This document shows, one piece after another, positions 20,563 to 22,315 of a stretch of DNA of 28,888 bases. Origin of the DNA: an uncultured Candidatus Saccharibacteria bacterium. Lineage in GTDB: Bacteria > Patescibacteriota > Dojkabacteria > SC72. Location of the stretch: assembly GCA_964573565.1 (NCBI GenBank), contig CAZNJV010000001.1, positions 1-28,888 of the forward strand. Reading direction: 5' to 3'. The number at the start of each line of letters is the position of its first letter. The stretch's first letter is position 1. A program made the translations under genes and the position numbers. The notes beneath the pieces are model-generated. The model worked only from the letters and a program-made list of their open reading frames with translations. It had not been told where the DNA came from and did no database searches.

Positions 20563-20604
20563 GGTTTATTGTACTATGAAGAACCTTTCAAAAACTTTGC
20601 AAAC

Positions 20605-20736
20605 CTATTCTTCACCATTCTCATCTTCTTCCTCATTCTCATCTTCAGAGGATGGGTGCAGCCATGTTAGTAGAAGAAGTATCAGTATTATTAAGGCTAG
20701 TGTGGCAATGAGTATGATAAAAAATAGGCTGTTCAT
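20605..20736 (-). CDS. 43-aa single-TM protein with acidic tail (MNSLFFIILIATLALIILILLLLTWLHPSSEDENEEEDENGEE)
   Basis: C-terminal part of the ORF-track 20605..20817 frame. ATG 20736 lies 7 nt after the stop of the upstream small ORF. Confidence 0.65.
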   Translation of the reverse strand: MNSLFFIILIATLALIILILLLLTWLHPSSEDENEEEDENGEE

Positions 20737-20743
20737 ATTTAGA

Positions 20744-20881
20744 TTATATATTGTTTCCAATATATTCTGTATATGATCCTTCGTTTGAATTTGAGATAAC
20801 AGCTTGAGTAAGTGCAATTACTCCAAGGAGGAAGCAGATGATTGCAATATATATTGCGAAAGTAGGCAGCTTTTGGTGCAT
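20744..20881 (-). CDS. 45-aa single-TM protein (MHQKLPTFAIYIAIICFLLGVIALTQAVISNSNEGSYTEYIGNNI), not in the ORF track
   Basis: Hand translation. Clear hydrophobic helix. Fills an otherwise empty gap, co-oriented with its neighbours. Confidence 0.55.
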   Translation of the reverse strand: MHQKLPTFAIYIAIICFLLGVIALTQAVISNSNEGSYTEYIGNNI

Positions 20882-20984
20882 GTTGTGTAGAGTATTAAGT
20901 TAGTTCCCGGAAAGCGAGAAAAGACCTCCACTCTATCAAAAATATTCAGTAATTGAAATTTGTAATTTGGCTTGTAATGGTTTT

Positions 20985-21530
20985 TTAATTTCTGTATTTC
21001 TCTAGCATTCGTTCTGTTAGAGAAAAGCAGCACCCACAGAAGTTTTGTTTGTAAAAACCTCCGGTCTTAATATGCTCGTGTTCTTGTTTTGGGTAAATGA
21101 GGCTGATATCTTTGGTTTCAAGCTTCTTCGCAATAGCTATTATTGTATCTGTGTCTTGATAATGGCTTGAGAGAAGTGTAGAAGATACATAGTTGAAATT
21201 ACGTTCTTGGGCATAATTAAAAAGATGTTGTATTCTGTTCTCCCAGCATCCGATACATCTTTTTTCTTTTCCTATTATACTTTCAAAGTATTCTTTGGGT
21301 TTGTATTCTGGAATTATCAACTCTACTTCCTGTTTTATCATCTTCCCCTCTATTATCTTTTTTAGTGCATTTAATCTCTCTAGATATTCAGTACGTGGAT
21401 GGATATTGGGATTGTAGTATAGCAGGGTTAATTTTGTTGAGGAAGAGATCTCTCCCTCTTCTTCCAATTCGTTAATGAGGTTTAAAAGACAGTCTGCACA
21501 ACATGTGTGAATTAGTAAATTATTAAGCAT
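20985..21530 (-). CDS. queH: Epoxyqueuosine reductase QueH (DUF208)
   Basis: IHTCCADC, YNPNIHP..EYLER, RCIGC, STLLSS, YKQNFCGCCFS. Confidence 0.85.
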   Translation of the reverse strand: MLNNLLIHTCCADCLLNLINELEEEGEISSSTKLTLLYYNPNIHPRTEYLERLNALKKIIEGKMIKQEVELIIPEYKPKEYFESIIGKEKRCIGCWENRIQHLFNYAQERNFNYVSSTLLSSHYQDTDTIIAIAKKLETKDISLIYPKQEHEHIKTGGFYKQNFCGCCFSLTERMLEKYRN

Positions 21531-22251
21531 TCTTTTTAATCTGTGTCCAATATATTTTAATTCGCTTTAGGAAGTGGAACAGTCCAACTGTGCCCATGAA
21601 GAGTGATAATTCAACATGCCAGTATAGAAAATTGAAGGAAGAATTTGCGAGTGCAGGTACTTGGTATTGCAATATCATTATAATTCCAAACCCTAGTGTA
21701 GGTATTAGGAATGAGAGAAGAAGCATTGTGTTCCAAAATGCATTGAAGAATTTTCCTTTTGGTGGATTGCTAATTTTGAATGCAAAGATATAGTGGCCCC
21801 AGTAGAGGATAGTTGCTATCAAGATTGGTATTAAGAGATTGTAAGGGTTGTTCTTCGTAGTTGTGATGGTTTCTGTGACTTGAGTAGGATCGGATGTTGT
21901 GTTATCTGTCGTTGTAACTGGTGTCTCAGTAGCGGTAGAAAGTGTACCTACTCTAAAAGTCTCCAAAAGATTTTGGGTAGTGGTTGTAAGATGTTTTCTC
22001 TCACTATCAAAAGCTTGTGCTATATCTGTACCACACCAGCTCGTTATATTGGAATATCGTTGATTGTGAATGTTCAGATACGTTGTGATGTCATAGACAT
22101 TACTATCATATATTACCCAGCAACTTGTGGAAGTATCATGTGTTGCTACTTCCTCTGACGTGTACTGTGTTGAGGCTATGACTTTGTGTAGTGTTAAGCC
22201 CAAGATCAATATCCCTAATATCGTTATACCTAGAGTTTTTCGATTTTTCAT
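21523..22251 (-). CDS. Cytochrome b5-like heme-binding domain fused to a His-bearing C-terminal membrane domain
   Basis: YTSEEVATH...CWVIYDSNVYDIT.Y...H...CGTDIAQAF...H, Thr-rich linker, 3 TM with YWHVE...LFHF. Alternative start at 22257. Confidence 0.75.
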   Translation of the reverse strand: MKNRKTLGITILGILILGLTLHKVIASTQYTSEEVATHDTSTSCWVIYDSNVYDITTYLNIHNQRYSNITSWCGTDIAQAFDSERKHLTTTTQNLLETFRVGTLSTATETPVTTTDNTTSDPTQVTETITTTKNNPYNLLIPILIATILYWGHYIFAFKISNPPKGKFFNAFWNTMLLLSFLIPTLGFGIIMILQYQVPALANSSFNFLYWHVELSLFMGTVGLFHFLKRIKIYWTQIKKNA

Positions 22252-22257
22252 AGTCAT

Positions 22258-22310
22258 AGAATACTAAAGATATGAAAAGAATTGCAAATACCACTTCACT
22301 TTGTTATTCT
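22258..22310. promoter_or_regulatory. Back-to-back promoters sharing one palindromic -35
   Basis: TTGCAA (22282-22287). Plus strand: 17 nt then TATTCT (22305-22310). Minus strand: 18 nt then TATTCT (22263-22258). Confidence 0.65.
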
Positions 22311-22315
22311 AAGGC

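Follow-up and report, generated by a model that had tools for sequence, protein, structure and literature searches.

The DUF4405 family (Pfam PF14358; arCOG04002) has been described as half of a cytochrome b561 bearing two heme-ligand histidines, and its fusion to a cytochrome b5 domain was noted in 2015 in Thermococcus barophilus (Makarova et al., 2015, PMC5898192). More recently, heme b spectra have been recorded for a purified DUF4405 protein and for the ferrosome protein FezC, the latter being modeled as a homodimer that forms DUF4405-like sites (2024, bioRxiv 10.1101/2024.03.13.584918). Here, a protein that resembles these systems is described from an uncultured, tiny bacterium of symbiont type that belongs to the Dojkabacteria (GenBank assembly GCA_964573565.1, contig CAZNJV010000001.1, positions 1 to 28,888; these 28,888 nucleotides, the whole stretch of DNA analyzed, are referred to as the window). 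The gene in question, an open reading frame (ORF) of 244 aa at positions 21523..22257 of the minus strand, fuses a cytochrome b5 domain to a three-helix membrane module and overlaps queH, which encodes epoxyqueuosine reductase. The explanation that fits the data best, to which a probability of about 65% is assigned, is that the protein carries an exported, tethered b5 domain on a DUF4405-like module that works as a dimeric transmembrane heme wire, and that its gene is an optional cassette functionally unlinked to QueH.

The window protein shares with DUF4405 and FezC a pair of His residues separated by thirteen others (H-x13-H) on the last membrane helix, which hhalign places in register, a small size that would make a dimer necessary to form bis-His sites, as modeled for FezC, and the fusion of a soluble N-terminal domain, which is a metal-binding HMA domain in FezC and a b5 domain in T. 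barophilus. However, it lies below the Pfam detection level for DUF4405, has three helices versus the two described for FezC/arCOG04002 and the six modeled for the purified DUF4405 protein of Oscillospiraceae, and shows invariant motifs of its own (FNxFWN, YWHVE and R232). Moreover, its gene is not located beside apbE, flavodoxin or fez genes. Cytochrome b561, MsrQ and FoxB (PepSY) resemble it in the proposed way of working, that is, two stacked transmembrane hemes on paired His that deliver electrons to an extracytoplasmic acceptor; unlike in the window module, all four His of these proteins reside in one chain of four to six helices, and no significant sequence or structure match of this type to the window membrane domain was obtained. 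The b5-DUF4405 architecture (2015) and the binding of heme by DUF4405 and FezC (2024) are thus already known. New here are a divergent subfamily that falls short of the Pfam threshold and a natural experiment, provided by congeners with and without the b5 gene, that rules out a dependence of QueH on the b5 protein.

The cytochrome b5 domain comprises residues 33-106 (21940..22161, minus strand) and matches Pfam Cyt-b5 (PF00173) over profile positions 1-73 of 74 with an E-value of 3.3e-13 (49.9 bits against a cut-off of 23.7). When run against the whole genome, this profile gives 52.8 bits at these coordinates, which is the sole Cyt-b5 match in the genome. An initial annotation of the window, made from its sequence alone, had noticed that both candidate heme-binding His are kept in this domain, and this observation holds: the axial ligands of bovine b5, which are the His of its HPGG and GHS motifs, correspond in the alignment to H64, located in an HNQR turn in place of HPGG, and to H89 (RKH), respectively, and both of these residues are invariant in 25 homologues (codons at 22066-22068 and 21991-21993, minus strand). 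Two Cys residues, C46 and C75 (codons at 22120-22122 and 22033-22035, minus strand), are also invariant in the family and align with the Cys of the cytochrome b558 of Ectothiorhodospira vacuolata, a prokaryotic exported b5; in an extracytoplasmic domain this pair probably forms a disulfide. In fact, the b558 structure (1CXY) is the closest PDB sequence (E 3.3e-8), and the likeness extends to the fold, to both axial His and to both Cys (in CW and WCG). However, b558 is free and soluble and its turn is of the HPG type, whereas the window domain has the HNQR turn and is tethered to a membrane module. The AlphaFold2 model shows block-mean pLDDT values of ~84-96 across the domain, and the top 50 Foldseek matches are all b5 folds, including 1x3x, 1cyo and 1cxy, with TM scores of ~0.8 by target and an rmsd of 2.1-2.2 Å. 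The domain is accordingly well placed as a cytochrome b5 and is predicted to bind heme b.

The b5 domain is preceded by a signal peptide or signal anchor at residues 1-27 (22177..22257, minus strand), which contains three K/R residues and a hydrophobic helix (residues 4-22 in the AlphaFold2 model) and ends with VIA|S, where it may be cleaved. On its other side, a flexible Ser/Thr-rich, mostly Thr, linker of residues 107-137 (21847..21939, minus strand; 52% Ser+Thr), with pLDDT values below 50 and a length that varies among homologues, leads to the membrane domain. The latter occupies residues 138-244 (21526..21846, minus strand) and is modeled as three C-terminal helices (residues 142-162, 165-199 and 210-243), so that the layout first proposed, a Thr-rich linker followed by three transmembrane helices, agrees with the model.

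Two His residues stand out in this domain. H214 (YWHVE; codon at 21616-21618, minus strand) and H228 (LFHF; codon at 21574-21576, minus strand), which are 14 residues apart on the last helix, show no variation in any of the sequences compared (the 25 close homologues, 21 diverse sequences and 102 sampled representatives of the family). Further invariant residues of the domain are N172, W175, N176, E216, R232 and Y236. The His residues that the initial annotation had listed for the membrane helices therefore do not have equal standing: H214 and H228 are invariant, but H155 (WGHY) is replaced by Ser in most homologues. A profile built on the membrane domain matches 731 representatives of 50%-identity clusters, 484 of them at E<=1e-10, and domain-profile matches show that the module is always located at the C-terminus.

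The relationship of this module with DUF4405 emerges from indirect comparisons. Searching Pfam and NCBIfam with the membrane domain alone matched nothing, and PF14358 weakly matches three of the 102 family representatives (best E 4.2e-4). The H-x13-H spacing is also that of canonical DUF4405 ORFs of Patescibacteria, and hhalign of the membrane family with canonical DUF4405 gives an E-value of 0.003 with both His in register. A sister fusion from Patescibacteria (L072) matches both Cyt-b5 (8e-19) and DUF4405 (4e-4; 21.3 bits against a cut-off of 26.7), and its membrane part alone aligns with the window family in hhalign with a probability of 95% and an E-value of 3.6e-8. This protein (L072:925-1722), together with L075:1447-2238, represents a second, separate family of b5-membrane fusions in another Patescibacteria lineage, which bridges to DUF4405. 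The ESM Atlas clusters that come closest in features and structure are automatically named DUF4405 (TM 0.72-0.77), although with scores below 0.9 they serve only as a lead. Canonical DUF4405 proteins were themselves scarce in the genome searches, which yielded 3 copies from 201 Patescibacteria and 2 from 81 genomes of the Methanobacteria class. From these sequence comparisons, the membrane domain appears to be a divergent DUF4405-like 'half cytochrome b' that belongs to a subfamily below the Pfam threshold.

The orientation of the protein can be predicted from its charges. The N-terminus contains three K/R residues, the loop at residues 163-171 two and the C-terminal tail five, while the loop at residues 197-211 has none, a distribution that by the positive-inside rule locates the b5 domain and the Thr-rich linker outside the cell. 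By the same rule, H214 would lie near the outer leaflet and H228 near the inner one. Combined with the AlphaFold2 model, this topology puts the b5 domain at the cell surface on a long tether.

These features suggest how the protein may work. The b5 domain would be exported and tethered to the membrane, in the manner of a bacterial periplasmic b558 with a probable disulfide, and the flexible Thr-rich spacer would join it to the three-helix half cytochrome b module. Two copies of the module would pair their H214 and H228 and thereby hold a stack of two b hemes that spans the membrane, an arrangement already proposed for FezC and DUF4405, with the tethered b5 acting as a mobile outer heme. The outcome would be a small heme wire that connects the cytoplasmic side with the cell surface, most likely used to export fermentative reducing power or to reduce Fe(III) or another acceptor outside the cell. 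The initial annotation had also suggested a transmembrane electron conduit, and this part of its proposal is upheld by homology, that is, by the intact b5 domain and the DUF4405-like H-x13-H helix; the part in which the conduit feeds QueH did not stand, as discussed below. Bacteria of the candidate phyla radiation are regarded as strictly fermentative and are not known to have electron transport chains or to make heme. With a conserved surface heme protein on a membrane di-His module, such bacteria would be able to exchange electrons with their hosts or environment; the presence of this protein would also imply that they scavenge heme. A more specific scenario, put forward tentatively and more doubtful than the general one, is that heme-auxotrophic Dojkabacteria, which would have neither quinones nor respiration, use scavenged heme to build a homodimeric four-heme wire (two membrane hemes and two tethered b5 domains) that discharges fermentative electrons onto extracellular acceptors or onto the surface of a host cell. 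If true, ultra-small bacteria would possess a minimal system for extracellular electron transfer. Because the b5-membrane protein is small and easy to express, its heme content, its dimerization and electron transfer across the membrane are directly testable.

Several observations weigh against a heme wire. PF14358 does not match the window membrane domain even at E<=10, and the hhalign comparison with canonical DUF4405 mentioned above has a probability of only 9.6%, so that the link between both families is transitive and weak when direct. Among the structure searches made with the membrane domain, which folds with a pLDDT of 86 when modeled alone, Foldseek against the PDB gave generic helical matches (best E 4.5) and the wide VIA-align search reached a best Z of 7.7 with dynein and K2P channels; for a three-helix monomer, such searches are uninformative either way. 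A sequence profile search of the PDB produced only a chance match with a Na/K-ATPase (E 1.3). The same module is also found with a Cys/Asp-rich N-terminal domain that does not look like a redox domain, and it occurs in Methanobacteria, which to our knowledge lack cytochromes. The cytoplasmic surface of the module is tiny, and the comparison of gene neighborhoods revealed no conserved cytoplasmic or extracellular partner gene. Finally, neither ferrochelatase nor ALAD was found in the window genome, and ferrochelatase was found in none of four congeners that are 96-99% complete. Part of this evidence would also suit a membrane His pair that binds a metal ion or another ligand instead of heme, in which case the module would be a metal transporter, a sensor or an anchor, and b5 just one of its interchangeable surface domains. 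Indeed, b5 is the N-terminal partner in only 15 of the 102 sampled representatives; many of the members from Bacteroidota and Methanobacteria carry the Cys/Asp-rich motif CP..GxCGRxxDxDxDGxCD, the remaining ones have no recognizable partner domain, and the DxDxDG-like domain or nothing at all is thus the rule in most of the sample. This alternative, which also draws on the presence of the module in Methanobacteria and on the failure to obtain a significant direct match in Pfam or in structure searches, is nevertheless considered unlikely, because the spacing and register of the two His are identical to those of DUF4405, the binding of heme b has been demonstrated for DUF4405 and FezC, and the fusion to a bona fide heme domain is repeated in independent lineages.

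The supply of heme bears on another possibility, namely that the protein is a heme scavenger in which the outer b5 captures environmental or host heme and the di-His helix passes it inward, in functional analogy with the small His-bearing heme importers of heme auxotrophs. Since no heme synthesis was detected, with ferrochelatase and ALAD missing as stated above and ferrochelatase not found in a 100% complete member of the class either, heme must be scavenged, and a b5 domain that is the sole Cyt-b5 match of its genome and sits, long-tethered, at the cell surface would be suited to such a task. However, imported heme would have no known destination, as no other heme user was found in the genomes searched: cytochrome bd is absent from the window genome, from three congeners and from the 100% complete class member, and heme oxygenase from nine genomes of the genus. 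ApbE was likewise not found in the window genome or in three congeners, although it is present in the 100% complete class member. By the searches run, the fusion is the only evident heme protein of the genome. As no other protein that would use or degrade heme was found, its import is less likely as a primary function than the use of heme as the protein's own cofactor. Furthermore, bis-His b5 domains hold their heme cofactor tightly, two stacked redox hemes classically have their ligands spaced as H-x13-H on a single helix, and the relatives DUF4405 and FezC purify with heme b bound. Heme scavenging as the function of the protein is therefore judged improbable, and the heme wire remains the preferred explanation. 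The initial annotation had recommended looking for tgt and for genes of heme biosynthesis, and the outcome was divided, with tgt (and queA) being found and ferrochelatase and ALAD not.

Another proposal derived from the locus was that the b5-membrane protein, co-translated with QueH, is the physiological electron donor of this enzyme or part of its donor chain. The ORFs are located exactly as originally reported: queH occupies positions 20985..21530 of the minus strand and its start overlaps the stop of the b5-membrane gene by 8 nt (21523..21530, minus strand; ATGCTTAA). The encoded QueH (DUF208; 181 aa) is a full-length copy with its Cys clusters and nothing unusual; it matches PF02677 at residues 5-172 (E 1.5e-35; profile positions 1-174 of 175) and contains Cys at positions 10, 11, 14, 92, 95, 165, 167 and 168. 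Since tgt and queA are present elsewhere in the window genome, an ordinary role for QueH is expected. In favor of the donor proposal, the overlap and the common promoter mean that both genes are co-transcribed in the window genome, five genomes of the genus retain the arrangement despite an identity of only ~47-53% between their b5 proteins, and no Fer4 (PF00037) or flavodoxin match was found in the window genome, the assembly of which (0.52 Mb) is 81% complete. The distribution of the two genes argues strongly in the opposite direction. Three congeners (G133, G136 and G137) have the same locus, in which the genes for an ABC-2 permease and an ABC ATPase diverge from queH, regulator and deformylase genes, but the b5 gene is cleanly absent; there, queH starts ~65-100 nt from the ABC gene at the same promoter, and no b5 gene was found elsewhere in these genomes at E<=1e-5. 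Of the 221 genomes in the class, 64 contain the fusion, whole or in pieces, and 53 contain queH; the two co-occur in 25, the fusion is present without queH in 39, and queH without the fusion in 28. They lie side by side in 5 of these 25 genomes, all of them in the genus of the window, while in the other 20 they are on different contigs or 26 kb apart. Among 57 loci taken from reference contigs with one genome per species, queH stands beside the fusion in only 4, and in those 4 the whole neighborhood is syntenic. Genera also differ considerably: in one, 9 of 15 genomes contain the fusion and 1 of 15 contains queH, and in another, 22 of 23 genomes contain queH and 8 of 23 contain the fusion. The class-wide counts yield a co-occurrence odds ratio of ~3, which was rejected as evidence of linkage because both genes are concentrated in one family and the signal is phylogenetic.

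Biochemical considerations point the same way. The hemes of b5 and b-type cytochromes have potentials near 0 mV, and those of [4Fe-4S]2+/1+ clusters are below about -300 mV. The transfer of an electron from a b heme to a [4Fe-4S] cluster would thus be strongly uphill, and this gap, together with the location of b5 outside the cell and of QueH in the cytoplasm, makes inward donation to QueH implausible. In addition, congeners contain Fer4_7 proteins and an ORF of 74 aa that resembles a ferredoxin. Judged by the phyletic pattern, the idea that the fusion feeds QueH is largely refuted and is given very little credence; the adjacency of both genes, which was to be judged by their co-occurrence and synteny, is a quirk of a single genus rather than a working partnership, each gene being often found without the other. 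For queuosine biology the result is negative, as the locus gives no lead to the physiological reductant of QueH. The ORF of 74 aa, which has a sub-threshold Fer4_7 match and is found in six congeners (e.g., G136:C1:31082-31144, G135:C4:46961-47023 and G139:C1:167818-167880), is a candidate small ferredoxin and may be a more plausible low-potential donor for QueH than the b5 fusion. Neither the Fer4_7 proteins nor this ORF were found in the incomplete assembly of the window genome.

The region between the divergent genes provides further information on the status of the b5 gene. The 58-nt intergenic region at 22258..22315 is the divergent promoter region common to the ABC ATPase gene on the plus strand and the b5/queH unit on the minus strand. 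When aligned across five genomes of the genus, it contains the conserved blocks TTTGCAAT and TAGTAT[CT]CT, which are kept both in genomes with the b5 fusion as the first downstream gene and in those where queH comes first. Because the blocks align with either first gene, the b5 gene represents an optional cassette ahead of queH. A generic sigma-70 scan of 22258-22315 detected no promoter-like site, and scans for promoters and terminators did not rise above background. The ABC ATPase of G136, which lacks the b5 gene, is 89% identical to that of the window, compared with 85-87% in three relatives that bear the fusion in this arrangement. The closer relationship of the G136 protein suggests that the congeners without the b5 gene have lost it, rather than never having had it. 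As for the overlap of 8 nt, such overlaps are common in the window and this one is therefore not distinctive: by crude longest-ORF calls, 9 of 20 neighboring ORF pairs on the same strand overlap, and 14 of 20 overlap or are at most 20 nt apart (<=20 nt). The overlap of b5 and queH reflects genome compaction, not function.

The b5-membrane fusion has 46 homologues of near equal length, and its profile matches in 97 of the 221 class genomes, with ~54 full-length matches at E<=1e-60. Genes that recur next to the fusion encode an ABC exporter, DUF5667, HIT, alpha/beta hydrolase, DsbA-like thioredoxin, LemA/DUF2207, histidine kinase and nitroreductase proteins, but they differ between genera and are often on the opposite strand. 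The neighbors of the module in Bacteroidales, Atribacteria and Methanobacteria are unrelated to those of the Dojkabacteria fusion. Variants of the fusion also exist. In some Dojkabacteria, two tandem b5 domains precede the membrane module, or the b5 and membrane parts match as separate pieces (G150:C2:46071-46955, G145:C78:1257-2141, G180:C1:133531-134136 and G144:C4:5250-5871 are such tandem or split versions). Several members of the class contain matches riddled with stop codons (G162:C7:48356-48853, G052:C1:425220-425756 and G076:C33:31760-32230), which look decayed and would fit a dispensable gene that is often lost.

Some additional observations concern the wider family and the window. 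The Cys/Asp-rich motif that precedes the module in other phyla is exported and resembles the calcium-binding DxDxDG loop (examples are P0104, P0106, P0113, P0126 and P0139, and loci L054-L056), and a neighboring ESM Atlas cluster carries the Pfam domain MJ0753_N, which may correspond to this motif. Relatives of the window genome in public records are labeled Dojkabacteria (WS6), or 'Saccharibacteria' in some pipelines. The only Rfam matches in the window are three tRNAs, all away from the b5/queH unit. The other genes around this unit encode an OmpR-type response regulator and a peptide deformylase, located downstream of queH, and the ABC ATPase and ABC-2 permease located divergently upstream of the b5-membrane gene. 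Between the stop of queH and the start of the response regulator gene lies a gap of ~420 nt (20563-20984) without Rfam match, which contains only two ORFs of 70-71 aa that were assigned to no family.

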